Sequence record: NC_007637.1
From: Escherichia phage K1E
Length of the DNA stretch: 45,251 bases
Strand: one strand, 5' to 3'
Below, one piece after another: positions 1 to 42,221 of this stretch; the first letter of the stretch is position 1; every line of letters begins with the position of its first letter. Position numbers and translations under genes: made by a program. Under the pieces are notes generated by a model that searched no databases, was not told where the DNA came from, and saw nothing but the letters and a program-made list of their open reading frames with translations.

Positions 1-288
1 TCTCGCCCTCGCCCTCGCCGGATTTTCCCCATATGGGGCCGCGCTGCGGTTGGCTTGGGGATTGGGCTAGGCTGGGCCGTCTTCAACCTGCTGCCGCAGG
101 AAGCTCGATGGGTTGGCTGAGGGTTGCCGAGGGCTGCGCTTAGTGGTACACAAGTAGAACGCCTAGGAAGCGCTAGGGCACGCCTTAGTGTTGGACAAGG
201 TGATTGCCTTAGTGCAACCGTTTAGGGCTTACACAGGCCGTTTTAGGGCAATTCCTGAGTGTTTGACAGGGTGTGAGGGTGTGGGCTA
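1..288. repeat. Left direct terminal repeat (288 bp)
   Basis: The first 288 nt (tctcgccctcgccctcgccggattttcccc ... gggtgtgggcta) recur at 44964..45251 with a constant offset of 44963. Begins with three CTCGCC hexamers and is GC-rich. Confidence 0.85.
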
Positions 289-490: not shown

Positions 491-714
491 CATAGCTAAA
501 GCTATAAGATGCAATTAGGTCGCGGTCGGTAGACCGCTGAGAGTAGGTAATAGTGATAAGATGCAGTAGGAGGAACACCAGAAACCTAGCCATCCTAGCC
601 TATCCTAGCTCTGTATCTATTGCTTTCCTTAGTCTCACATGTTAGACAACCTAGGTTTATCTTAGTAGTTGTGACATGTATCACATAAATAATCTATCTT
701 AGTTAAATTTAGTG

Positions 715-2272: not shown

Positions 2273-2345
2273 TGGATAGGTTAAACCTAGGGTATTCTTT
2301 TGAGTGCCCTATAATGTAACCTAACTAACTAATGAGGATTAAATC

Positions 2346-2864: not shown

Positions 2865-3092
2865 ATGGATTTAGATAGCATCATTATGGCATTTGCTCTT
2901 ATTGGCTTAAGCTGGTGCTCCTATCACCTTTACCGTGAGTTCTTATTTGATAAAGCTAAACGCAAACTAAGAAAGGAAGGCGGTAACTACCTCTGTGTAA
3001 GAGGCGGTTTAGTCGAATATATTGCACCTAACGGCACGGAATGCGCCATTAACAAAGATGCATTTATAGAAACGTGGCATTACATCAAGTAA
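2865..3092 (+). CDS. Hypothetical small membrane protein (75 aa)
   Basis: ATG 2865 with TAGGAG upstream; hydrophobic N-terminal segment IIMAFALIGLSWCSY. Confidence 0.45.
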   Translation: MDLDSIIMAFALIGLSWCSYHLYREFLFDKAKRKLRKEGGNYLCVRGGLVEYIAPNGTECAINKDAFIETWHYIK

Positions 3093-3155
3093 CTAGCCTA
3101 TAGCCTGCCTGTGTGGGCTATGTGATATTTACTTACACTATATAAGGTGACTATT

Positions 3156-4040
3156 ATGACTACTGAAAACACCCTTCTGTCTGTTCGTGAAGCTGCAACC
3201 GCTGAAATCAAGCAGCACTTAGACAATATCGGCACTTCTTACATCAAAGTTGGCGCTTGTCTGAATGAATTACGCGGTGATTTCGAAGGTCAAAAAGACT
3301 TTTTAGCTTATGTAGAATCAGAGTTCGGCATCAAGAAGGCACAATGCTACAAGCTGATGAGTGTAGCCCGTGTCTTTGAAGGAGACGAACGCTTTAAAGG
3401 TGTGGCTATGCGTGTAATGCTGGCGCTTGTTCCTTTCGCTGATGAAAATATAATCATGGAGAAGGCCGCAGAACTCGCCGCAGATGGCAAGCTGGACACT
3501 AACGCCGTAAACGCCCTGATTGAGACTAAGAAAGAGATAAAGGCCGAAACGGTACAATCTAAGGCTGAGGCAGTAAAACCGCAGGAGAACGCGACTGAGG
3601 CCGCAGAATCACAGGAAATGCAAGCGCCGCAGGTAGTGCCACCCGCGAGCGAGCAGGAGGCCGACGAATCAGCACCATGGGAAGAGGAAAGCAAGCCGGA
3701 AGCGCCAAAGGCAGCGCCGCTGGATAACACGGCTAATACCGAAAACGCCGCTATGGCTAGCCTCTTAGCACAAATTAAGGCACTGACTGAGCAATTACAG
3801 GCAGCTAATGACCGCATCGCCTCCTTAAGTAGCGCACGCGAAAGCAAGAAGGCAGCCGCACCTATGCTGCCGCAATTCAAATCTTCCTGCTTCTATGCTC
3901 GCTTAGGGTTAAGCGCTGAGGAGGCAACGAAGAAAACAGCAGTTAACAAGGCGCGCCGCGAACTGGTTAAGCTAGGCTACGGTGAAGGACATGAAGCATG
4001 GCCCTTAATCTCTGAGGCAGTAGAAGAGTTGACTAAGTAA
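3156..4040 (+). CDS. Hypothetical early protein (294 aa) with acidic Pro/Glu/Ala-rich linker
   Basis: Track ORF starts at GTG 3147; first ATG is 3156 with AAGGTGA upstream. GC-rich low-complexity middle (about 3540..3720); sits immediately upstream of the RNA polymerase gene. Confidence 0.55.
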   Translation: MTTENTLLSVREAATAEIKQHLDNIGTSYIKVGACLNELRGDFEGQKDFLAYVESEFGIKKAQCYKLMSVARVFEGDERFKGVAMRVMLALVPFADENIIMEKAAELAADGKLDTNAVNALIETKKEIKAETVQSKAEAVKPQENATEAAESQEMQAPQVVPPASEQEADESAPWEEESKPEAPKAAPLDNTANTENAAMASLLAQIKALTEQLQAANDRIASLSSARESKKAAAPMLPQFKSSCFYARLGLSAEEATKKTAVNKARRELVKLGYGEGHEAWPLISEAVEELTK

Positions 4041-4103
4041 CCTTATCGGTGGCATCTCCTTAGGTGTCACCTATTAAGGTTTCTTTCACTAGGAGTAAAC
4101 AAG

Positions 4104-6731: not shown

Positions 6732-6804
6732 TATTAATAGGCCATTCCTTCGGGAGTGGCTTTCTTTTACCTACTACCTGTAACATTTCATTAACATAAA
6801 ACGT

Positions 6805-6820
6805 GTCTCACATGTGAGAC
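6805..6820. repeat. Palindromic hairpin GTCTCACATGTGAGAC, copy A
   Basis: Perfect 16-bp palindrome followed by TTTATTT, immediately upstream of the promoter at 6824. Confidence 0.7.
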
Positions 6821-6823
6821 TTT

Positions 6824-6846
6824 ATTTACCGGACACTATAGGATAG
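6824..6846 (+). promoter_or_regulatory. SP6-type phage promoter (+1 G at 6841)
   Basis: ATTTACCGGACACTATAGGATAG; the transcript would begin with hairpin ccgtc-gga-gacgg. Confidence 0.75.
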
Positions 6847-6986
6847 CCGTCGGAGACGGGAAAGAAAGGGAAGATAAAGGATATAAAGGAAGTAATAGGT
6901 ATTAAAGGTTATATAGGTTATCTAGGAATACCTATTACCTTCTTCCTTCCTCTTATTACCACTTAGAGGAAGGGCAGACCTAGGTT
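6847..6986. promoter_or_regulatory. Candidate primary replication origin: AT/purine-rich dyad region between two phage promoters
   Basis: Purine-rich run, then 11-bp inverted repeat taataggtatt (6893..6903) / aatacctatta (6927..6937), then a pyrimidine-rich run. Position matches the T7 primary origin, just downstream of gene 1. Confidence 0.4.
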
Positions 6987-7002
6987 GTCTCACATGTGAG
7001 AC
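6987..7002. repeat. Palindromic hairpin GTCTCACATGTGAGAC, copy B
   Basis: Perfect 16-bp palindrome, immediately upstream of the promoter at 7008. Confidence 0.7.
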
Positions 7003-7007
7003 TTCGT

Positions 7008-7030
7008 ATTTACCGGACAGTATAGATAAG
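7008..7030 (+). promoter_or_regulatory. SP6-type phage promoter (+1 G at 7025)
   Basis: ATTTACCGGACAGTATAGATAAG; one mismatch in the core. Confidence 0.65.
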
Positions 7031-7187: not shown

Positions 7188-7406
7188 ATGGCTAAATACA
7201 GAATCAAGACCTGTTTAAATAGTCACGGGCAAGAGTGTTACATAGTGCAACGTAAAGTATTAGGCTTAATATGGGTCACATGTATGATGCCTATTGGATA
7301 TACTGATACAGAGGCTATCTTCTGCACCGAAAGGGATGCAAAGCAGTTTATCTCTAAGCGTAGAAAAGCTGACTCTTATCAACCCAGAACTATTAAGGTG
7401 AACTAA
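7188..7406 (+). CDS. Hypothetical protein (72 aa)
   Basis: Track ORF; its stop overlaps the primase ATG (TAATG). Confidence 0.45.
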   Translation: MAKYRIKTCLNSHGQECYIVQRKVLGLIWVTCMMPIGYTDTEAIFCTERDAKQFISKRRKADSYQPRTIKVN

Positions 7407-9394
7407 TGGCTATTATTAATAACATCCCGTGTCCTGCTTGTCAGAAGAATGGACACGATAAATCCGGCAACCACCTCATGATATTTGATGATGGTGCTGG
7501 CTATTGCAACCGTGGTCACTTCCATGATAATGGCAAGCCCTACTATCACAAGCCAGAGGGTGGCATCGAGATAACCGAATTGCCTATTACTGGCAATATC
7601 AAATATACACCTTCTCAATTCAAAGAGATGGAGAAGGAAGGGAAGATAAGCGACCCTAAGTTGCGCGCCATCGCACTTGGTGGTATGCGTATGAAAGACC
7701 GTTGGGAGGTCATGAATGAGCAAGAAAGGGCAGACCAAGAAGCAGAGTGGAAACTTGATGTTGAATGGTTCCTCACGCTTAAGCGTAAGAACCTTGTGTC
7801 CCGTCACATTCGAGGTGACATCGCAGCAATGTACGATGTGCGCGTTGGACACGATGAAGAGGGAAGAGTCAACCGTCACTATTATCCACGATATGAAAAG
7901 GGTGTGCTTGTTGGAGCAAAATGCCGGACGTTGCCGAAGGATTTTAAGTTCGGACACCTAGGTAAACTCTTTGGTATGCAAGACCTTTTCGGTATGAATA
8001 CTTTGTCTCACGTGTTAGACAAGGGAAGACGAAAGGATTGCTTGCTTATTGTGGGCGGCGAACTGGATGCACTAGCAGCACAGCAAATGCTCCTTGATTC
8101 TGCCAAGGGTACTAAGTGGGAAGGCCAGCCTTACCATGTATGGTCTGCCAATAAAGGTGAGTCTTGCCTTGAAGAGATAGTGCAAAACCGTGAGCACATA
8201 GCCCAATTCAAGAAGATTATATGGGGCTTTGATGGCGACGAGGTGGGGCAGAAGCAGAACCAACAAGCTGCTCGCCTGTTTCCTGGCAAATCCTACATCC
8301 TCGAATATCCCTCTGGTTGCAAAGATGCTAACAAGGCATTGATGGCTGGCAAGGCTAAAGAGTTTGTTGATGCTTGGTTTAATGCCAAGTCATCTGATGA
8401 AGTCTTTGGTAGCCAGATTAAATCTATCGCATCTCAAAGGGATAAGCTCAAGGCTGCACGTCCAGAGCAAGGACTATCATGGCCTTGGCCTAAGCTGAAC
8501 AAGGTAACGCTAGGTATTCGTAAGAACCAGCTTATCATTGTAGGTGCAGGCTCTGGTGTAGGTAAGACTGAGTTCCTTCGTGAAGTAGTTAAGCACCTCA
8601 TTGAAGAACACGGTGAATCTGTAGGCATCATTTCTACAGAAGACCCGATGGTCAAGGTGTCCCGTGCTTTTATCGGCAAGTGGATTGATAAGCGTATTGA
8701 GTTACCGCCAACCAACGACCCGAAAGAAGACGGATACCGTGAGGTGTTCGACTACACCGAGGAAGAAGCTAACGCTGCCATTGATTATGTGGCTGATACA
8801 GGAAAGTTATTTGTGGCTGACCTAGAAGGCGACTATTCTATGGAGAAGGTAGAGCAAACTTGCCTAGAGTTTGAGGCTATGGGCATTTCTAATATCATCA
8901 TTGATAACTTAACGGGGATTAAATTAGATGAGCGTGCTTTTGGTGGGAAGGTTGGTGCACTTGATGAATGCGTCAAACGAATTGGTACTATCAAAGACCG
9001 ACATGCGGTTACGATTTTCCTTGTCTCTCACCTTACACGTCCTCCGGCAAACCGTACCCAACACGAAGAAGGTGGCGAAGTTATCCTTTCTGACTTCCGA
9101 GGCTCAGGCGCTATCGGATTCTGGGCATCTTACGCCTTGGGGATTGAGCGTAATACAAGAGCTGAAACGCTTGACGAAAGGACTACCACGTACATCTCAT
9201 GTGTCAAAGACCGCGACCAAGGTATCTGGACTGGAACCAAGGTCATGCTTAAGGGTGACATTCAAACCGGACGTTTAATGGAACCACAAGCCCGTACTAA
9301 GTCATTTGATACAGGTGAAGCAAGGCAACAAGAAGTGCCGGATTTACCGGACACTATAGAAGAGACAACCTTTGACGATGAACAGGAGTTTTAA
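7406..9394 (+). CDS. DNA primase/helicase (T7 gp4-like, 662 aa)
   Basis: N-terminal Cys4 zinc ribbon (CPACQKNGHD...CNRGH), Walker A GAGSGVGKTEF, acidic C-terminus ...FDDEQEF ending in Phe as in T7 gp4. Confidence 0.9.
   Translation: MAIINNIPCPACQKNGHDKSGNHLMIFDDGAGYCNRGHFHDNGKPYYHKPEGGIEITELPITGNIKYTPSQFKEMEKEGKISDPKLRAIALGGMRMKDRWEVMNEQERADQEAEWKLDVEWFLTLKRKNLVSRHIRGDIAAMYDVRVGHDEEGRVNRHYYPRYEKGVLVGAKCRTLPKDFKFGHLGKLFGMQDLFGMNTLSHVLDKGRRKDCLLIVGGELDALAAQQMLLDSAKGTKWEGQPYHVWSANKGESCLEEIVQNREHIAQFKKIIWGFDGDEVGQKQNQQAARLFPGKSYILEYPSGCKDANKALMAGKAKEFVDAWFNAKSSDEVFGSQIKSIASQRDKLKAARPEQGLSWPWPKLNKVTLGIRKNQLIIVGAGSGVGKTEFLREVVKHLIEEHGESVGIISTEDPMVKVSRAFIGKWIDKRIELPPTNDPKEDGYREVFDYTEEEANAAIDYVADTGKLFVADLEGDYSMEKVEQTCLEFEAMGISNIIIDNLTGIKLDERAFGGKVGALDECVKRIGTIKDRHAVTIFLVSHLTRPPANRTQHEEGGEVILSDFRGSGAIGFWASYALGIERNTRAETLDERTTTYISCVKDRDQGIWTGTKVMLKGDIQTGRLMEPQARTKSFDTGEARQQEVPDLPDTIEETTFDDEQEF
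9342..9364 (+). promoter_or_regulatory. SP6-type phage promoter inside the 3' end of the primase/helicase gene (+1 G at 9359)
   Basis: ATTTACCGGACACTATAGAAGAG; perfect core. Confidence 0.7.
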
Positions 9395-9555
9395 TGGAAA
9401 TTATTAAACCAGTATTGAATATCGGTATTGAGATCCTATTCATGCTTGTGATCGCAGATTATGCTGCACGATATGGATTCAAGAAAGCTGTGAAACTTAT
9501 CGTTGCATCTGGTTTTCTTATGTCAATGTTCTTTATTGTAACACGCCTTATCTAG
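9394..9555 (+). CDS. Hypothetical small membrane protein (53 aa)
   Basis: ATG overlaps the primase stop (TAATG); AGGAG 5 nt upstream; two hydrophobic segments; found by manual translation. Confidence 0.45.
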   Translation: MEIIKPVLNIGIEILFMLVIADYAARYGFKKAVKLIVASGFLMSMFFIVTRLI

Positions 9556-9566
9556 TGTATTTATCA

Positions 9567-9594
9567 GGGCTTGTCTCACATGTGAGACAGGCTC
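9567..9594 (+). terminator. Palindromic hairpin (core GTCTCACATGTGAGAC, 9573..9588) with U-rich tail; terminator-like
   Basis: gggcttgtctcacatgtgagacaggctc followed by ttatta. Confidence 0.5.
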
Positions 9595-9627
9595 TTATTA
9601 AGTACATTAAATAACTGGAGATTGATT

Positions 9628-10540: not shown

Positions 10541-10739
10541 ACACAGTCTTAAGATGTTTGATGGTCACGAAGACCTGCAAGCACAAATTACTAACCAAGC
10601 CTTCCTGTTTGCACAGTTAACTATGGCTGAAGCAAAGAAGAATAGCCTGACGCGCGAGCAAGTTATCAAAGAGGCAACTTGGGAGCCACACCAAGGCAAA
10701 TACATGGGCCAGAAATTAACTGTAACACGCAGTCGATAA
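10530..10739 (+). CDS. Hypothetical protein (69 aa)
   Basis: Track ORF overlapping the upstream stop; start uncertain (alternative ATG at 10554). Confidence 0.4.
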   Translation: MQNKHSLKMFDGHEDLQAQITNQAFLFAQLTMAEAKKNSLTREQVIKEATWEPHQGKYMGQKLTVTRSR

Positions 10740-10746
10740 GTAAAGG

Positions 10747-10768
10747 GTTGTCTCACACGTGAGACAGC
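10747..10768 (+). terminator. Palindromic hairpin variant GTCTCACACGTGAGAC (10750..10765); terminator-like
   Basis: ggttgtctcacacgtgagacagcc followed by tttcatc; same arms as the other copies with a different central dinucleotide. Confidence 0.45.
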
Positions 10769-10796
10769 CTTTCATCATATTGATTGGAGGTGCATT

Positions 10797-13758: not shown

Positions 13759-13856
13759 TGCAGGCATCTTTTATTATTCTTGGAGTCATATTATTTATGG
13801 TAGTATTCTGGGCTTTCTCTGGCATTGACCCAGATTGTGATGGTAACTACGACTGA
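13758..13856 (+). CDS. Hypothetical small hydrophobic protein (32 aa)
   Basis: ATG overlaps the upstream stop (TGATG); GAGGAGG upstream; found by manual translation. Confidence 0.3.
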   Translation: MQASFIILGVILFMVVFWAFSGIDPDCDGNYD

Positions 13857-13866
13857 GTTATACTCA

Positions 13867-13891
13867 AGGTCACTTACGAGTGGCCTTTATG
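13867..13891 (+). terminator. Candidate hairpin terminator
   Basis: aggtcact-tacg-agtggcct (8-bp stem with one G-U pair) followed by tttatgaataa. Confidence 0.3.
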
Positions 13892-13924
13892 AATAACTTA
13901 TTCCTACTTATTTTGTCTAACATG

Positions 13925-14011: not shown

Positions 14012-14389
14012 ATGTCTATGGTAACTACTCTGGTATTCGTGGCTCAATACTTTCGTGGTCTTGCTAATAAGTTCAAGTCCAAGGCTATCAAAGCTATTGA
14101 GGCTCGCATCGAAGCAGTACAGGCAGAGCAAGTTAAAGTTGAAGAACATCGTAGTTCTCAAATGATTGACTGTCATAACCGCTACTATGCATCTCGTGAT
14201 GAACTAAATGCACGTCAAGTCAAAGAGGTAGAAGATATGCTGGCACGTCACCAGCAAGAGCGTGACAGCCTGAAAGCTGAATTTGAAGAGAACAAGGCAT
14301 CAATTGCTCTTGTAAATCAAGCTGCATCTGACAGCCTGAAGAAAGAGATTGTTATGCTGGAAATAGAACTGGACAACTTGACTAAATAA
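14012..14389 (+). CDS. Hypothetical protein, probable coiled coil (125 aa)
   Basis: ATG with TAGGAGA upstream; heptad-like charged sequence. Confidence 0.55.
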   Translation: MSMVTTLVFVAQYFRGLANKFKSKAIKAIEARIEAVQAEQVKVEEHRSSQMIDCHNRYYASRDELNARQVKEVEDMLARHQQERDSLKAEFEENKASIALVNQAASDSLKKEIVMLEIELDNLTK

Positions 14390-15900: not shown

Positions 15901-15916
15901 GTCTCACGTGTGAGAC
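15901..15916. repeat. Palindromic hairpin variant GTCTCACGTGTGAGAC
   Basis: Reverse complement of the 10750 variant; lies immediately upstream of the promoter at 15932. Confidence 0.6.
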
Positions 15917-15931
15917 AAATCGGTGTCCGGT

Positions 15932-15954
15932 ATTTACTGGACACTATAGAAGAG
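15932..15954 (+). promoter_or_regulatory. SP6-type phage promoter (+1 G at 15949)
   Basis: ATTTACTGGACACTATAGAAGAG; perfect core. Confidence 0.8.
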
Positions 15955-29620: not shown

Positions 29621-32568
29621 TGGCAATTGAGCGACAAGCAGTACAAGGTCTGCCACAAGTGCAGGCCACTTCTCCTAATGTCATGACCTTTGCACCTCAA
29701 CAAGTGGGAGGTGTGGAGGCTGGCGTGGCTTCTACCTCCGGTAGTAGGTTTATCGAAGACCTTATTCGTGCAGCCAGCAGTGTGGCTGATGTTACCACTG
29801 GTATCCTTAATCAGAAGATTGAGGAAGATAAGGTTGTTCAAATGGAACGGGCATATAACGGACTAATGCCTTCTGAGGATGCAACTCGTGGTGGCGCTCG
29901 TGCTAACATGCTTGTCAAAGCTCAACTGCTAGCTAATGATGAAGCAGCACGAATGAAAGACATGGCTACTCGTTTCCAAGGGACGGATGACGAGTGGACA
30001 CAACTTATGGTTGACTCTCGTAATGAGATGCAGAATAAGCTGTTCCAGCAATACCCTGAGTTGCAAGGTGACAAAGATACTATGCGTATGGTCACTAATG
30101 TCTTCCAAGAACAGCAGCCTCAGATTTGGGCTACACGAACCCAGCATAAACTTGACCGTGAACAAGCAGACCGGGAGGATACCTTTGACGGGCGAGTGGC
30201 TTCTACTTGGGATCCTAATATTGACCCTGAAGCATCTGGCTATGCTTTACAGGAACGAATCCGCGAAGGTCTTACTCAAGGATTACTACCTGAACAGATG
30301 CACAAGAAGTTAGTCCAGCGAGCAATTTCACTTGCACAAGGCGGTGATGTTAGCATGGCTGAAGCCCTGAAGTATGTGAAGGACGATAAGGGTGTTTCTG
30401 TTTATGCTAAGAATCCACAGCTTATCACAGCCATCACTAGTGGTAATGCAGTTTGGGCTAGGAATAATGTAGCTGATGTAACTCGTATGTCTTTCGAAGT
30501 TAAAGAATCATACCTTGCAGGTGATTTAACTGATGAAGAATTGTTGGAACGAGCACAGCACATTAATAATCTGACAGGTAACTCTGTCTTCTCTAATCCA
30601 GAACTAGAGGCACTGATGCGCCAACGGGCTAAGCAGAATGCAGAGCTAGGTGCAATGCAGGATATGCGACGTGAGCTTTACTCCGACCGCCTGACTGGCT
30701 TCCAAGGTAAGACTGATAAAGAGAAGAAGGCTTACATTGATGTTATCAAACAGGATAGCCAACTTTATGCAGACCAGCAAATCAAACAACGTGGCTTGGA
30801 CCCTTACAGTCAAGAGGCTGAAGCTATTCGTGGTGCAGTGGAAGTGCAGCGCCTGCAATTCATGAACTCCAAAGGTTTAGTGGATGATACCTTTGAATCT
30901 CGTATCAAGGCTATGGAATCCATGCTATCACCTGAGCACTTTGCTAAAGGTGAACCACAGGAGTTAATGACCATTCGTCAGTTGTGGGAGCAGTTACCTG
31001 AAGAAAGTCGAGGTGTCTTCGGTGACACTGTGAACGGTTATATGGATAACTACAATACTGCATTACAAATGGGAGAGACACCTTTGCAGGCTGCAAGGTT
31101 TGCCCGTGAAGCACAGCAGAAATTCTCTCGTACTGAGAAGGAAACCAAGAAGTTCAACTCCGCTATTGGAGATGCACTGGATGAGGTATCTGGTGCTGGC
31201 TGGTTTGATGGTAAAACCGAGGTGTCAGACTTAGGTAAAGCTATTGCGGAAGAAGAGTTACGAGCTAAGGCCAATATGTTGTGGTCTAGCGGTATGCGTA
31301 ACATGGATTCTATCAAGAAGGCTTTAATCACTTGGGGCAATAAACGCTACACTCAATCAGAGGATGCAAAGACTTCCGGTGGCTATTTCATTAAAGGTGA
31401 TTACACTTCTGCATCTGATATGCTTATGTCAGTTGGGAAAGGTGTAAACCCTACCGATGTCCCTCTGGCGCTTGGTAGGTATGTAGAAACACAGATGCCA
31501 GAATTGAAGAAGGAGCTTCAAGAGTGGGAAACTAAGGATGATGTGTACATTGATTACAATGAACAGAAAGGAACTTTTGTGATTCGTGCTGGTGCAGCAG
31601 GTCGCCCTCTTTCTGGAGTAATCCCTGTAACTTCTTTGGATACCACTTCACTACTGGATTCTGCCTATCAGAAGAAAGTAGAAGAACGAGATAAAGGCGA
31701 GTATGTTCATCCCTATCGTACAGATATCGGTGCACAAGAACCAATGCCAGCTAAGCCAACTGCCAAAGATATTGGTAAATTAGGATTAGCTAACTTCCTC
31801 ATGTCTTCTGCTTTTGCTTCTGGTGAGAATCTACCTTCTAACTTCGAGATTAACTATCGAGGCAATATGCAACAATTCTATGACAAGCTAGCTATGGATG
31901 AGAATAAAGATAAAGTTGGCTTTAATAAGGCAACTGGAACCTTTACTCCATATAAAGACGCTCACGGTGAGTCTATCGGTTACGGTCATTTCTTAACGGA
32001 AGAAGAGAAGCGAGACGGGTATATTAAGATTGGCGATGAACTAGTTCCCTATCGAGGGTCTATGTCTCAGCTTACAGAGAGTAAGGCTCGCGCTCTTATG
32101 GAGCAAGATGCTAGGAAGCATGTGCCTCCTACTCGTGACTGGAAGATTCCGTTTGACCAGATGCATCCTGCACAGCAACGTGGCTTGATGGATTTAACCT
32201 ACAATTTAGGTAAAGGTGGAATCCAGAACTCACCGCGTGCTCTTGCTGCATTCAAAGCTGGTAAGCTTACGGAAGGCTTTATCGAAATGCTGGGTACTGC
32301 ATCAAGTGAAGGTAAACGTATTCCGGGCCTACTGAAGCGACGCGCTGAGGCATACAATATGGCAGCTGCTGGTGGTGTACCTAAGATCACAGAAGTGGAG
32401 ACGAGGGAAGATGGCTCTATGTGGGTTAAGTTTGGTGGACCTATGCCAGCAGGCTCTGTTTCTGCGTGGACGCATAAACGTATTGGAGCCGATGGCTGGT
32501 ATCAGGTTTATGAGGCTGCACCTACCAAGTTAGCTAAAGACTCTAAGGTAGGTAAAGTTAAATTGTAG
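29620..32568 (+). CDS. Internal virion protein with C-terminal lysozyme-like (T4 lysozyme/GH24-type) domain (982 aa)
   Basis: GESIGYGHFLTEEEK, QRGLMDLTYNLGKGG and KRIPGLLKRRAEAYN parallel T4 lysozyme (YYTIGIGHLLTK, RCALINMVFQMGETG, NRAKRVITTFRTG). Confidence 0.65.
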   Translation: MAIERQAVQGLPQVQATSPNVMTFAPQQVGGVEAGVASTSGSRFIEDLIRAASSVADVTTGILNQKIEEDKVVQMERAYNGLMPSEDATRGGARANMLVKAQLLANDEAARMKDMATRFQGTDDEWTQLMVDSRNEMQNKLFQQYPELQGDKDTMRMVTNVFQEQQPQIWATRTQHKLDREQADREDTFDGRVASTWDPNIDPEASGYALQERIREGLTQGLLPEQMHKKLVQRAISLAQGGDVSMAEALKYVKDDKGVSVYAKNPQLITAITSGNAVWARNNVADVTRMSFEVKESYLAGDLTDEELLERAQHINNLTGNSVFSNPELEALMRQRAKQNAELGAMQDMRRELYSDRLTGFQGKTDKEKKAYIDVIKQDSQLYADQQIKQRGLDPYSQEAEAIRGAVEVQRLQFMNSKGLVDDTFESRIKAMESMLSPEHFAKGEPQELMTIRQLWEQLPEESRGVFGDTVNGYMDNYNTALQMGETPLQAARFAREAQQKFSRTEKETKKFNSAIGDALDEVSGAGWFDGKTEVSDLGKAIAEEELRAKANMLWSSGMRNMDSIKKALITWGNKRYTQSEDAKTSGGYFIKGDYTSASDMLMSVGKGVNPTDVPLALGRYVETQMPELKKELQEWETKDDVYIDYNEQKGTFVIRAGAAGRPLSGVIPVTSLDTTSLLDSAYQKKVEERDKGEYVHPYRTDIGAQEPMPAKPTAKDIGKLGLANFLMSSAFASGENLPSNFEINYRGNMQQFYDKLAMDENKDKVGFNKATGTFTPYKDAHGESIGYGHFLTEEEKRDGYIKIGDELVPYRGSMSQLTESKARALMEQDARKHVPPTRDWKIPFDQMHPAQQRGLMDLTYNLGKGGIQNSPRALAAFKAGKLTEGFIEMLGTASSEGKRIPGLLKRRAEAYNMAAAGGVPKITEVETREDGSMWVKFGGPMPAGSVSAWTHKRIGADGWYQVYEAAPTKLAKDSKVGKVKL

Positions 32569-32582
32569 TACCTAACTCAAGG

Positions 32583-32604
32583 CTTGTCTCACATGTGAGA
32601 CAGG
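32583..32604 (+). terminator. Palindromic hairpin (core GTCTCACATGTGAGAC, 32586..32601); terminator-like
   Basis: cttgtctcacatgtgagacagg followed by tcttta. Confidence 0.5.
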
Positions 32605-32632
32605 TCTTTATGATAGGCACTATGGAGGAACT

Positions 32633-37107: not shown

Positions 37108-37390
37108 ACATGCAGCTACAGAAGATGAGGTTGGCATCCTGCATGGTGCTATTACCAAAATCTTTAATAAGAAAGCACAGGCAATACTGGACACTATAGA
37201 AGAAGACCCAGATGCAGCACTGCATTTAGTCTCTGGTAAAGACATTGGAGCTATGTGTAAGTGGGTTCTTGATAATGGTATTACCGCTACACCTGCTGCA
37301 CAGCAGGAGGAGTCCAAGCTATCTAAGCGCCTCAAGGCTATCCGAGAGGCATCAAGTGGCAAGATTATTCAATTCACTAAGGAGGATTGA
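37091..37390 (+). CDS. Putative terminase small subunit (99 aa from GTG start)
   Basis: Track ORF starts at TTG 37046 inside the holin gene; proposed start is GTG 37091 with GGAGG 7 nt upstream; position matches T7 gene 18. Confidence 0.45.
   Translation: MSVHNKHAATEDEVGILHGAITKIFNKKAQAILDTIEEDPDAALHLVSGKDIGAMCKWVLDNGITATPAAQQEESKLSKRLKAIREASSGKIIQFTKED
37182..37204 (+). promoter_or_regulatory. Weak SP6-type promoter-like sequence inside coding sequence (+1 G at 37199)
   Basis: CAATACTGGACACTATAGAAGAA; perfect core with mismatches at -17 to -15. Confidence 0.4.
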
Positions 37391-38556
37391 TGGCTAAGGC
37401 AAGAGAATCACAAGCGGAGGCTCTTGCCAGATGGGAGATGCTACAGGAGTTACAGCAGACCTTTCCTTACACAGCGGAAGGTTTGCTTCTCTTTGCAGAC
37501 ACAGTTATTCATAACTTAATTGCAGGCAACCCTCATCTGATTCGTATGCAGGCTGATATCTTGAAGTTCCTATTCTACGGACACAAGTATCGCCTCATCG
37601 AAGCGCCTCGTGGTATCGCTAAGACAACACTATCAGCAATCTATACAGTATTCCGTATCATTCATGAACCGCATAAGCGTATCATGGTTGTATCCCAAAA
37701 CGCCAAGCGAGCAGAGGAAATCGCAGGTTGGGTAGTTAAAATCTTCCGTGGCCTAGACTTTCTTGAGTTTATGCTACCGGACATCTACGCAGGGGACCGT
37801 GCCTCAGTTAAGGCATTTGAGATTCATTACACCCTACGTGGCAGTGACAAGTCGCCTTCTGTGTCTTGTTACTCAATCGAAGCAGGTATGCAGGGTGCGC
37901 GTGCAGATATCATCCTAGCAGATGACGTTGAGTCAATGCAGAATGCTCGTACAGCGGCAGGACGTGCCTTGCTTGAGGAACTGACCAAGGAGTTTGAATC
38001 TATTAACCAGTTTGGTGATATTATCTACCTTGGTACTCCTCAGAACGTAAACTCTATCTACAATAACCTACCTGCTCGTGGTTACTCTGTTCGTATCTGG
38101 ACTGCACGTTATCCCTCAGTGGAGCAGGAGCAATGCTATGGTGACTTCCTTGCACCTATGATTGTGCAGGATATGAAGGACAACCCAGCACTTCGCTCAG
38201 GGTATGGCTTGGATGGCAATAGTGGTGCCCCTTGTGCACCTGAAATGTATGATGATGATGTGCTGATTGAGAAGGAAATCTCGCAGGGTGCGGCTAAGTT
38301 CCAGCTTCAGTTCATGCTTAACACTCGCATGATGGATGCTGACCGCTATCCGCTACGCCTGAACAACCTCATCTTCACTTCATTCGGTACAGAGGAAGTC
38401 CCTGTGATGCCTACGTGGAGCAATGATTCCATCAATATTATTGGCGATGCACCGAAGTATGGCAATAAGCCTACAGACTTCATGTATCGACCTGTGGCTC
38501 GCCCGTATGAATGGGGCGCTGTCACTCGTAAGATTATGTATATTGACCCTGCTGGT
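37390..38556 (+). CDS. Terminase large subunit, exon 1 (389 codons)
   Basis: ATG 37390 with AAGGAGG upstream; Walker A-like PRGIAKTT and Walker B ADIILADDVE; similarity to T7 gp19 stops at ...IDPAG, where an insertion begins. Confidence 0.85.
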
Positions 38557-39311
38557 AAACACCTCTGCCAGCGTAAAACCCTCTTAATTCGGTGGAACTC
38601 TCACTGAGACAATACCGAGCGAAGCCTGTTGCAATAACAGGAACGTGTAGAGACTAACTGTAAGGCCAAGCGGTCTGAAACAGAGGGAGGCGCAAGCCTA
38701 AGATATAGTCCGACCTACTAGGTGACTAGTAGAAGTTAAAGTAGCGAATTAACGTAACAATTGAAGGGAGTTAAATATGACAGAGCATAAAGTTTATCAT
38801 ATTCGTGTTGTTGGTGAAACTGATGTAATGCAAGGTTATATTGGTGTAACCTCCGATATTAAGAAGCGTATGAGAGAGCACAAGTGTGCAGGCCGTCTTT
38901 GTGATGGCCGCGAGTACGTTATCTTATTCACTGGTAGCAAAGAAGAGTGTTATGCACTAGAAGAGAAGCTACGCCCACATGACAACATGGGTTGGAATAA
39001 GGGTAAAGGTGGTTATCGCAAAGCAGGTAACATCGAGAAAGGTGAACGCATAAGTATTGCCACTGAAATCAAGAAAGGACAGCACTTGTCTGTTGCCACT
39101 GAGTTCAAGAAAGGCATGACACCTTACAACAAAGGTACTGGCAAAGATTACATATTCACTTCTCCAGATGGTGAAGAGTTTCTTGTAACTTGCATTACTG
39201 ACTTCTGTAAAGAGCACAACCTAACACCTCAGAATATGCGTAAGGTGGCACGTGGTTTACGTAAACACCACAAGGGTTGGCTCGCACGTCACGTTCAAAC
39301 CGGGAGGTAAG
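38557..39311 (+). mobile_element. Group I intron (candidate, self-splicing) carrying a homing endonuclease gene
   Basis: Conserved elements in canonical order: P AATTCGGTGGAA (38586..38597), Q AATACCGAGC (38611..38620), R GTAGAGACTAACTG (38647..38660), S AAGATATAGTCC (38700..38711). P1 pairing of exon GCTGGT (38551..38556) with GCCAGC (38567..38572). The 3' boundary is uncertain: G39311 or G39302. Confidence 0.75.
38777..39310 (+). CDS. GIY-YIG homing endonuclease (I-TevI-like, 177 aa) encoded within the intron
   Basis: AAGGGAG RBS; N-terminal KVYHIRVV...GYIGVTSDIKKRMREH (GIY-YIG with conserved Arg/Glu); central repeated GERISIATEIKKG / HLSVATEFKKG units; basic C-terminal DNA-binding-like region. 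Confidence 0.8.
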   Translation: MTEHKVYHIRVVGETDVMQGYIGVTSDIKKRMREHKCAGRLCDGREYVILFTGSKEECYALEEKLRPHDNMGWNKGKGGYRKAGNIEKGERISIATEIKKGQHLSVATEFKKGMTPYNKGTGKDYIFTSPDGEEFLVTCITDFCKEHNLTPQNMRKVARGLRKHHKGWLARHVQTGR

Positions 39312-40034
39312 AATGGGGATGAAACGGGTGTGGCTATCGTCTTCCTGCACGGCACATTCATTTATGTGTATCAGTGCTTTGGTGTGCCGGGAGGATACCG
39401 CGAATCGTCCCTGAATCGCATTGTGCAGGCCGCAAAGCAGGCAGGTGTTAAAGAGGTATTCATTGAAAAGAACTTTGGTCATGGCGCGTTTGAGGCCGTT
39501 ATAAAGCCATACTTTGAACGAGAGTGGCCTGTGACTCTGGAGGAAGATTACGCCACCGGACAGAAAGAGTTGCGTATCATTGAAACACTAGAGCCACTAA
39601 TGGCGGCCCACAGGCTCATCTTCAACGCAGAGATGGTCAAGTCTGATTTTGAGTCGGTACAGCACTATCCGCTTGAGCTACGCATGTCATACAGCCTTTT
39701 CAATCAAATGTCGAACATCACGATTGAGAAGAACAGCCTACGACACGATGACCGCTTAGACGCTCTGTATGGCGCTATACGGCAATTAACTTCTCAGATA
39801 GACTATGACGAGGTTACACGGATTAATCGCCTCAGAGCGCAGGAGATGCGCGATTACATCCATGCTATGAACACACCTCACCTCCGTAGGGCAATGCTCT
39901 ATGGAGATTATGGCACTGAGCGAAGAGTAACCAACACTTCCGTGGCTATGCAGCAAAGAGTATACGGTCAGAATTACAGGAGTAAATCGGCAAGCAGAAA
40001 TACACTTTCTGCAAGGATTTCAAGGACTTATTAA
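39312..40034 (+). CDS. Terminase large subunit, exon 2 (240 codons; may instead begin at 39303)
   Basis: NGDETGVAIVFLHG...EKNFGHGAFEAV...QKELRIIETLEPLMAAHRLIFN...HDDRLDAL parallels the C-terminal nuclease domain of T7 gp19. Confidence 0.85.
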   Translation, partial: NGDETGVAIVFLHGTFIYVYQCFGVPGGYRESSLNRIVQAAKQAGVKEVFIEKNFGHGAFEAVIKPYFEREWPVTLEEDYATGQKELRIIETLEPLMAAHRLIFNAEMVKSDFESVQHYPLELRMSYSLFNQMSNITIEKNSLRHDDRLDALYGAIRQLTSQIDYDEVTRINRLRAQEMRDYIHAMNTPHLRRAMLYGDYGTERRVTNTSVAMQQRVYGQNYRSKSASRNTLSARISRTY

Positions 40035-42154: not shown

Positions 42155-42221
42155 GCACTGCTTTTCGCGCAACTTTTCTTAAAGGTTATCATGATGGTAG
42201 CCTTTCAGAAAAGGAGGTTAC

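Follow-up and report, generated by a model that had tools for sequence, protein, structure and literature searches.

The genome of Escherichia phage K1E (NC_007637.1), which is the window analysed here at its full length of 45,251 nt and to which all K1E coordinates refer, carries a 16-bp palindrome, GTCTCACNNGTGAGAC, in several dispersed copies. K1E is a Vectrevirus (K1E/K1-5-like, SP6 supergroup) whose best GenBank relatives are ~96% identical to it. Exact matches to GTCTCACNNGTGAGAC lie at 6805, 6987, 9573, 10750, 15901 and 32586, and allowing up to two mismatches adds just 632 (GTCTCACATGTTAGAC) and 8005 (GTCTCACGTGTTAGAC), each with a single mismatch. In dinucleotide-preserving shuffles of the genome (n=100) not one held any match to GTCTCACNNGTGAGAC, and the total of eight sites compares with 0.10 expected. 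The copies and coordinates given in the original prediction, which was made from the letters of this DNA, are thus borne out as six exact and two one-mismatch sites against a chance level of ~0 to 0.1, and the genome-wide search with its shuffled control puts the count far above the chance level. The variation had been placed in the central dinucleotide, and there we found AT in five of the eight copies, GT in two and AC in one.

Palindrome copies and their surroundings in K1E

The eight copies form three classes, extended (9573, 10750, 32586), core-only (6805, 6987, 15901) and imperfect (632, 8005), and most of them begin 1 to 73 nt past a stop codon (17 nt for 9573, 10 nt for 10750, 1 nt for 15901 and 17 nt for 32586). 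K1E has 13 phage promoters matching ATTTACYGGACACTATAGRA. The core-only copies, which fold as hairpins of 6 bp with a 4-nt loop at about -7 kcal/mol, end 3 nt (6805), 5 nt (6987) and 15 nt (15901) before position -17 of such a promoter. The first, at 6805..6820 and listed, as all the copies are, without a strand, spans -36 to -21 of the promoter ATTTACCGGACACTATAGGA at 6824..6843 (+), its hairpin alone reaching -6.9 kcal/mol; the second, at 6987..7002, precedes a promoter with two mismatches to the consensus (7008..7027, +); and the third, at 15901..15916, stands between a stop codon and the promoter at 15932..15951 (+), whose -12 to -3 bases are complementary to GGTGTCCGGT just upstream. A GC-rich terminator-like hairpin with a T-run lies at 6739..6762 (+), directly 3' of the RNA polymerase (RNAP) gene, and it is likely that this hairpin, rather than the palindrome, is the early terminator; the order terminator-then-palindrome is also seen in Era103, PM85 and Njord.

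The promoter regions next to these copies have features of their own. The segment 6841..6986, between the tandem post-RNAP promoters and flanked by the palindromes 6805 and 6987, is purine-rich/pyrimidine-rich and contains a long imperfect inverted repeat, folding at -40.3 kcal/mol on the + strand versus -35.0 on the - strand; it sits where T7 has the phi1.1A/R1.1/phi1.1B primary-origin region, and an equivalent region is found in SP6 and PM85. At 15921..15945 the sequence ahead of the promoter of the gp18-like gene complements the -12 to -3 bases of that promoter (GGTGTCCGGT / ACTGGACAC). The same upstream repeat occurs in SP6 (~14276..14300), PP1, phD2B and PM85, its arm changing along with the promoter, and the conserved promoter-embedding hairpin recalls T7 R6.5 and R13.

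The imperfect copy at 632..647, with one arm mismatch, lies upstream of the sigma-70-like early promoters, whose first hexamers are at 671 and 715. A copy syntenic to it is present at the left end of K1-5, SP6, UAB78, phD2B, PP1, ULIP33, PM85, Era103, Njord and R24D, and in the six genomes that show a TTGAC(A) -35 element in the flank it ends 6 to 50 nt 5' of that element. The other imperfect copy (8005..8020) is embedded in the open reading frame (ORF) of the primase/helicase (7406..9394), where its codons read S-H-V-L-D.

The extended copies are the tips of longer hairpins. A covariance model, R1, made from the seven T7 RNase III sites only and run on K1E with filters off, finds RNase III-like bipartite hairpins of T7 type at 9552..9612 (18.8 bits, E 0.074) and 10729..10789 (20.6 bits, E 0.026), with the palindromes 9573..9588 and 10750..10765 at their apices, and a T7-type RNase III hairpin at 32565..32625 (30 bits, E 1.1e-4), with the palindrome 32586..32601 at its apex, between two large internal-virion-protein genes (the gp35/36 junction). 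All three matches are on the + strand and among the top seven over the 90 kb searched; the positive control, a canonical T7-type site that has no palindrome (CUCAAGGUCACUUACGAGUGGCCUUUAUGAAU, 13852..13904, +), scores 52.9 bits (E 1.8e-10), and 632, 6805, 6987, 8005 and 15901 give no R1 match at E up to 10. In the extended copies a lower stem (7 to 11 bp) is separated by a small, asymmetric internal loop from an upper stem of 13 bp that ends in the palindrome, and their flanks are complementary with U.G wobbles, pairing on the + strand only. Folded with 45-nt flanks, the three copies become bipartite hairpins whose energies run from -29 to -32 kcal/mol on the + strand, versus -20 to -24 on the - strand; the hairpins themselves give -31.8 versus -20.1 (9552..9612) and -31.1 versus -21.7 (10729..10789).

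At 32586 the flanking sequences, ACUCAAGG...CUUUAUGAU, agree with the consensus of T7 R0.3, R0.5, R1.1 and R18.5. In 10 genomes the site at the gp35/36 junction scores 30 to 45 bits with R1, and its lower stem has undergone compensatory change, both sides being altered in 10 of 24 pairs. As the Era103 site at this junction has an ordinary T7-like hairpin tip in place of the palindrome, the palindrome is an interchangeable apical module, which the RNase III site can do without. Judging from sequence and folding, we predict that the three extended copies are processed as RNA by host RNase III, like T7 R1.1-type sites, and the option of RNase processing, raised in the original prediction, has gained support to this extent. 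Two of its other statements do not hold up: a hairpin is not the unifying property of the family, five of the eight copies being weak 6-bp stems (~-7 kcal/mol) or arm-mismatched, and the premise that hairpins do not share a stem sequence is not general, as T7 RNase III sites do share stem sequences.

R1 also reports palindrome-free T7-type candidates on the + strand at 2276..2326 (25.3 bits), 4034..4088 (19.2), 42171..42221 (19.1) and 3086..3137 (15.3), and the candidate at 4034..4088 is directly 5' of the RNAP gene, the place of R1 in T7. The extended copy at 10750 reads GTCTCACACGTGAGAC in K1E and its counterpart in K1-5, at 9570, reads GTCCAACGTGTTGGAC, an SP6-type sequence with an AAC-type core, a mosaic recombination junction of the two genomes falling exactly at the putative operator/RNase III site.

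The palindrome arm and the recognition helix of an early protein

Conservation in related phages, one of the checks named with the original prediction, proved extensive: the element was found in all testable SP6-supergroup and Colwellvirinae phages, each genome or partial contig with enough sequence holding 3 to 11 copies in syntenic places, and a general palindrome scan of the T7 genome found none. In K1-5 the palindromes are the same and their sites syntenic, and at those sites SP6 has GTCYAAC-RY-GTTGGAC. The arm differs by lineage. It is GTCYAAC in UAB78, VLCpiA2b, phD2B, PP1, K1-ULIP33 and Vibrio BD5 (6 to 11 copies), GTCCAAC with a 3-nt centre in Proteus PM85 (5 copies), GTCTCAC with a 2-nt centre in Era103 (9 copies, 4 of them exact) and GTCTCAC with A-S-T centres in Pseudomonas Njord and Alpheus, Vibrio R24D and phiA318 and Aeromonas MJG (6 to 11 copies). 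Other lineages carry GTCTAGT (PP99 and ECBP5, 5 copies), GTATAGT (WAG25P1, 6 copies), GTCTCCT (Ralstonia Reminis and one IMG/VR contig, 3 to 6 copies), GTCTACA (three IMG/VR contigs, 5 to 9 copies) or GTTCGAG (Marinomonas CPG1g, 4 copies).

Sites recur 5' of the first early -35 element, between the RNAP terminator and the first phage promoters, 3' of the primase gene, 5' of the genes for DNA polymerase and the gp18-like protein, at the gp35/36 junction and within the RNAP and primase ORFs. The spacing to the first phage promoters downstream varies among lineages from 0 to 16 nt. In ECBP5, Reminis, two IMG/VR contigs, MJG and Njord a site also lies in or just after the gene of the candidate reader protein described below.

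Searching for K1E ORFs common to all 12 of 12 palindrome-bearing genomes and undetected in T7 left 12 ORFs, and one of the two among them without annotated function in any record is a gene at 3156..4040 (+), just 5' of the RNAP gene. Its 294-aa product, the homologue of SP6 gp7 and K1-5 gp6 and one with 212 homologues in GenBank, belongs to phrog_4571, a family of unknown function, and comparison with Pfam, PHROGs and PDB-HMM returned no Pfam domain and no named family. In the full-length AF2 model a helical N-domain is followed by a disordered stretch (124..191), a coiled coil (192..234) and a small C-domain modelled with confidence. The N-terminal domain is modelled with the ParB/KorB/SopB helix-turn-helix fold, the coiled coil of ~40 residues is likely the dimeriser, and the C-terminal domain has a J-domain-like fold in which the HPD motif is missing.

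An alignment of this protein from 12 genomes (418 columns) was extended with 38 IMG/VR loci and 8 further GenBank lineages, and the half-site of each genome was called, unsupervised, from its majority palindrome, giving ~7 states over 52 genomes/loci. Exactly one of the 418 columns splits the CAC-arm phages (K1E, K1-5, Era103, Njord) from the AAC-arm phages, namely that of residue 66, which is K in the former and N or H in the latter. The CAC-arm set is polyphyletic (Vectrevirus, Era103, Njord), and PP99, with AGT arms, has R at this column. Residue 66 lies in the motif IKKAQCY[K/N/H/R]LM, in the second helix of the predicted helix-turn-helix. When residues 63 and 66 are read together, Q..K goes with GTCTCAC (19/19), Q..N/H with GTCCAAC (21/21), S..N with GTCTAAC (a single case), W..R with GT(C/A)TAGT (6/6), W..K with GTCTCCT (2/2) and Y..R with GTCTACA (3/3). 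There are no exceptions over the 52 genomes/loci, some of which are one phage entered from two collections, and the clades are not independent.

In protein-DNA recognition Lys or Arg prefers a G:C pair and Asn an A:T pair. The pairings of residue and half-site would fit these usual contact preferences, and the option of protein binding in the original prediction has gained support, the arm co-varying with the helix by which an early protein of ParB/KorB fold would recognise DNA.

An exact-motif scan of IMG/VR gave mostly single, chance-level matches. Some apparently unrelated viral contigs there (L019, L018, L069, L088 to L092; UViG_3300002245_000010) hold multiple copies of GTCTCAC-YR-GTGAGAC with CA or TG centres, one of them with three closely spaced (tandem) copies and one with at least seven, and by their sequence these palindromes may be operators of a related DNA-binding family. 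Gajwadongvirus-type phages (PP99 at 162, 7940, 8018 and 16306; ECBP5; WAG25P1) have a second palindrome family, GTACTAGTYRGCTAGTAC, which often adjoins a GTCTAGT-type site 5' of promoters and which we take to resemble the E. coli trp operator.

Proposed operator sites and competing explanations

The copies within coding sequence were compared at the codon level. In the primase ORF (L/M)-S-N-V-L-D is encoded as ..G TCY AAC GTG TTR GAC by every one of the 7 AAC-arm genomes fetched that have a 2-nt centre, and the nucleotides of this block are fixed, synonymous positions included, with the adjacent codons varying freely; the peptide is not kept in PM85 (TAFLD), Era103 (KDVMA) and PP99 (QAVLD), where the motif of the phage has no way of fitting, nor in Njord. 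The Vectrevirus primase has S-H-V-L-D, encoded as GTCTCAC..GTTAGAC, in which the left arm is the CAC type of the genome. This shift costs an amino-acid change and a C.U mismatch, that is, a broken base pair, and the right arm is unable to follow because GTG TGA GAC would put an in-frame stop (TGA) into the gene. The same N-to-H shift is seen in the coding copy of the RNAP gene of Era103, a CAC-type genome too. Over the 2-nt-centre copies with CAC, AAC or AGT arms, a purine always occupies position 8 and a pyrimidine position 9, both orientations (AC or GT) occurring, and the outer GTCY/RGAC bases are kept in most lineages, being changed in WAG25P1, L165 and CPG1g. As read from these sequences, the palindrome evolves in the manner of a half-site, and pairing is not what drives it.

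The RNAPs of several relatives carry the S-N/H-V-L-D block as the primase does (L006 4964, L011 9977, L007 5754, L009 4901, L010 5622). SP6 RNAP (VSNVLD) and K1E RNAP (~5500, TANVLD) keep a similar peptide, the nucleotide motif being lost at synonymous sites.

We propose that the 16-bp palindromes are probably operator sites of the dimeric ParB/KorB-fold early protein encoded at 3156..4040. The operator would be double-stranded DNA made of two inverted half-sites, 5'-GTCTCAC(R)-3', bound by a protein dimer that is predicted to recognise the GTCTCACATGTGAGAC duplex, and Q63 and K66, which are spaced by three positions in the recognition helix, would read half-site positions 5 to 7. As the genome is tightly packed, operators would be placed where there is room for a palindrome: in the short gaps between genes immediately 5' of promoters, at the tips of T7-type RNase III hairpins that were already there (9573, 10750, 32586) and whose RNA fold a palindrome would preserve, and in ORFs able to encode S-N/H-V-L-D. 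The RNase III context of the three extended copies is, on the best-supported reading, a second layer that is independent of the operator role, because insertion of a palindrome at the hairpin tip leaves the RNA unharmed.

The positions suggest a KorB-like global regulator or an insulator. Made early, the protein would bind 5' of the early host-type promoters, which could mean autoregulation or shut-off, and its binding beside or between the first promoters for phage RNAP that follow the RNAP gene would modulate transcription or act as a roadblock to it. The main alternative role that we infer is ParB-like, around a presumed replication origin in the tandem-promoter region after the RNAP gene, comparable to the T7 primary origin. 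To our knowledge, the textbook control of the T7 supergroup comprises the single-subunit RNAP, promoter strength, RNase III and lysozyme, and no site-specific DNA-binding regulator. We lean, by a little more than even chances, towards the wider proposal that SP6/K1E-type phages and Colwellvirinae have an unrecognised regulator network, in which the SP6 gp7/K1-5 gp6 family reads 8 to 12 operators by a two-residue code (63 Q/W/Y; 66 K/N/R) and through them governs the switch from early to middle, promoter insulation or the function of the origin, T7 achieving equivalent control with no factor of this kind, and in which operators have repeatedly been threaded into RNase III tips and into the RNAP and primase ORFs.

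Several points weigh against operator sites of this kind. Protein and site are linked by correlation, and since both share the phylogeny of the genome, the truly independent switches number perhaps 5 to 7 and not 52. No ParB/Srx CTP-binding N-domain was found in the 294-aa protein by Pfam or in its model, and no ParA partner was found among the K1E ORF set, for which reason the protein is not to be classed as a true ParB. The centre is 2 or 3 nt by lineage, which is awkward for a rigid dimer and which the modelled flexible linker could absorb. Lastly, SP6 and UAB78 have the asymmetric form GTCTAAC..GTTGGAC, with a U.G wobble on the + strand, in the same orientation in all 11 intergenic copies of transcribed regions; the opposite, C.A-type copies number seven and lie at genome ends or in ORFs, so that the consistent U.G form is limited to intergenic transcribed copies. 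As a symmetric model with DNA only does not predict this orientation, an RNA-level constraint may also act on the SP6/UAB78 copies.

One competing explanation is purely at the RNA level: in it all copies are + strand mRNA hairpins serving as RNase III sites, 3'-end stabilisers or punctuation, the common stem comes from shared descent or from a preference of the host RNase, and a DNA-binding protein of the phage plays no part. It would fit the three copies that are T7-type RNase III hairpins, the position of most copies a short way past stop codons, the mostly compensated changes of the arms, the uniform U.G orientation and the sharing of stem sequences among T7 RNase III sites as well. However, the core-only copies are weak and unmatched by the RNase III model, the left-end copies, which stand 5' of the early promoters, keep their sequence in spite of frequent mismatches, and the coding copies have moved toward the half-site of their genome at the expense of pairing. 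A need for a hairpin alone would permit any compensated sequence, whereas the outer GTCY/RGAC bases are kept as sequence across phages whose RNAPs are just 42% identical, and the perfect co-variation with a single helix of one protein is left unexplained. We consider this explanation unlikely.

A recombination or mobility signal, akin to T4 PeSL or to REP/MITE elements, that spreads or mediates module exchange and evolves in concert through gene conversion appears very improbable to us. Copies do lie at gene-module boundaries, the copy type is homogenised within each genome, and at 10750 K1E and K1-5, ~95% identical overall, have a different core and a different downstream gene and so form a mosaic junction; beyond this one boundary the recombination option of the original prediction found no support. 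Against it, neither the 60 + strand ORFs compared nor the 10 conserved, unannotated ORFs searched with Pfam/PHROGs include a transposase, RAYT or HUH gene, there are no target-site duplications, 16 bp is short for phage homologous recombination, and co-variation with a helix-turn-helix helix is given no reason. Neither the mobility enzyme nor the variable insertion positions that mark REP/RAYT or MITE families were seen. As the copies are syntenic across genera and the primase copy is conserved at the codon level, a maintained function and not mobility is indicated.

Weak intrinsic terminators or pause sites for phage or host RNAP, set before promoters and limiting read-through or promoter occlusion, have the least to recommend them and can hardly be the answer: several copies are immediately 5' of promoters and a permissive terminator-like scan reports 6805 and 6987 alone among the copies, with 3 GC pairs and hairpins followed by TTTATTTA and TTCGTATTTA, but the stems are short and weak, a stable GC-rich stem with an immediate U-run is not found, a U-run is missing from 15901 and from the Era103 copies, the post-RNAP copies of K1E, Era103, PM85 and Njord already have a strong GC-rich terminator 5' of them, and termination at the copies within the RNAP and primase ORFs would be harmful. 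The original prediction had likewise set ordinary terminators aside, rightly in view of these results, and the U-rich tracts it described 3' of several copies are loosely present at 6805 (TTTATTTA), 6987 and 32586 and absent at 15901.

Two further candidates were dropped. The idea of a primase GTC site leaves the palindromy unexplained, and sites for host factors (IHF, CRP, LacI-family, EcoKI) were rejected because their consensus does not fit.

We found no literature on the motif or on a function of the protein, in a search that left the original SP6/K1-5 genome papers (Dobbins 2004, Scholl 2004), which may mention the repeat, outside its scope; the UAB_Phi78 and phiA318 genome papers do not mention the element. 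Rfam over K1E gave no family at the palindromes. Its sole match is a group I intron (RF00028, 38525..38732, +, 63.6 bits, E 5.8e-14) between the halves of the terminase large subunit (37390..38607 and 39600..40034). An ORF of 177 aa 3' of this intron (38777..39310) is 94% identical by tblastn to a K1-ULIP33 sequence, the K1-ULIP33 record has a homing endonuclease annotated between its own split terminase halves, and the phD2B terminase is split too.

If the palindromes are operators, a new layer of control would be added to the SP6 branch, to which SP6, K1E and K1-5 belong together with many therapeutic phages of Klebsiella, Salmonella and Erwinia, an early gene that is 'hypothetical' throughout would gain a function, and the oddly conserved S-N-V-L-D codon block of the primase and RNAP genes would be accounted for. 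The residue-to-base code predicts that K66N retargets the protein from CAC to AAC arms, which, if true, would offer orthogonal protein/operator pairs for engineering, and in the engineering of SP6-type phages intergenic deletions or moves would remove operators. The element is also relevant to defence systems that sense palindromic or hairpin DNA, such as Lamassu DdmABC, as T7-like vibriophages carry dispersed, mutually similar palindromes, RNase III-like sites included, that trigger this defence (PMC11707656).

Comparison with known systems

The extended copies resemble most closely the T7 RNase III sites (R0.3, R0.5, R1.1, R4.7, R18.5). The bipartite architecture is the same at 9573, 10750 and 32586, the last shares the flanking consensus (A)CUCAAGG...CCUUUAUGAU, and a model built from T7 alone recovers the three palindrome hairpins of K1E along with the canonical site at 13852. 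The upper stem, however, is 10 bp in T7 and 13 bp in K1E, where the conserved palindrome makes up its distal 7 bp; among the eight K1E copies five have no RNase III context, and the likeness in K1E comes from sequence and folding.

T4 PeSL cassettes and bacterial REP elements are also repeated stem-loops at gene boundaries, sometimes paired with promoters. They differ in that the order in K1E is palindrome-then-promoter, that the copies are syntenic and ancient and not hyperplastic, that K1E has no mobility enzyme, and that the sequence co-varies with a DNA-binding helix.

In the IncP plasmid RK2, KorB, a global regulator of the ParB family, acts through about a dozen dispersed OB palindromes, many of which are just 5' of promoters and others distant. 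RK2 and the phages thus both have about a dozen copies of a short palindrome over a replicon of ~45 to 60 kb, many of them promoter-proximal and others far, and both have a site near the promoter of the regulator itself. In contrast to KorB, to which it has no detectable sequence similarity, the 294-aa protein has a J-domain-like C-terminus and is a putative binder and repressor; no CTP-binding domain, IncC/ParA partner or KorA-like co-repressor was identified in K1E, which is a lytic phage of the T7 supergroup with adjacent promoters for a single-subunit RNAP.

The ParB site parS has the arms GTTTCAC/GTGAAAC. The differences from ParB/parS are that a lytic linear phage needs no partition, that no spreading or sliding clamp is expected because the 294-aa protein is without a CTPase domain, and that the spacing of the half-sites is another, with a centre of 2 to 3 bp in the phage palindrome. 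The likeness lies in a 16-bp palindrome with a similar arm (GTTTCAC/GTGAAAC versus GTCTCAC-RY-GTGAGAC), in 8 to 12 sites clustered, as with ParB/parS and Noc/NBS, in one part of a genome around a presumed origin, and in the presence of some sites within ORFs, including in or beside the gene of the protein itself. As in the switch between ParB and Noc, where specificity is set by few residues in or near the recognition helix, so too in these phages few residues of the helix may set which arm is read.

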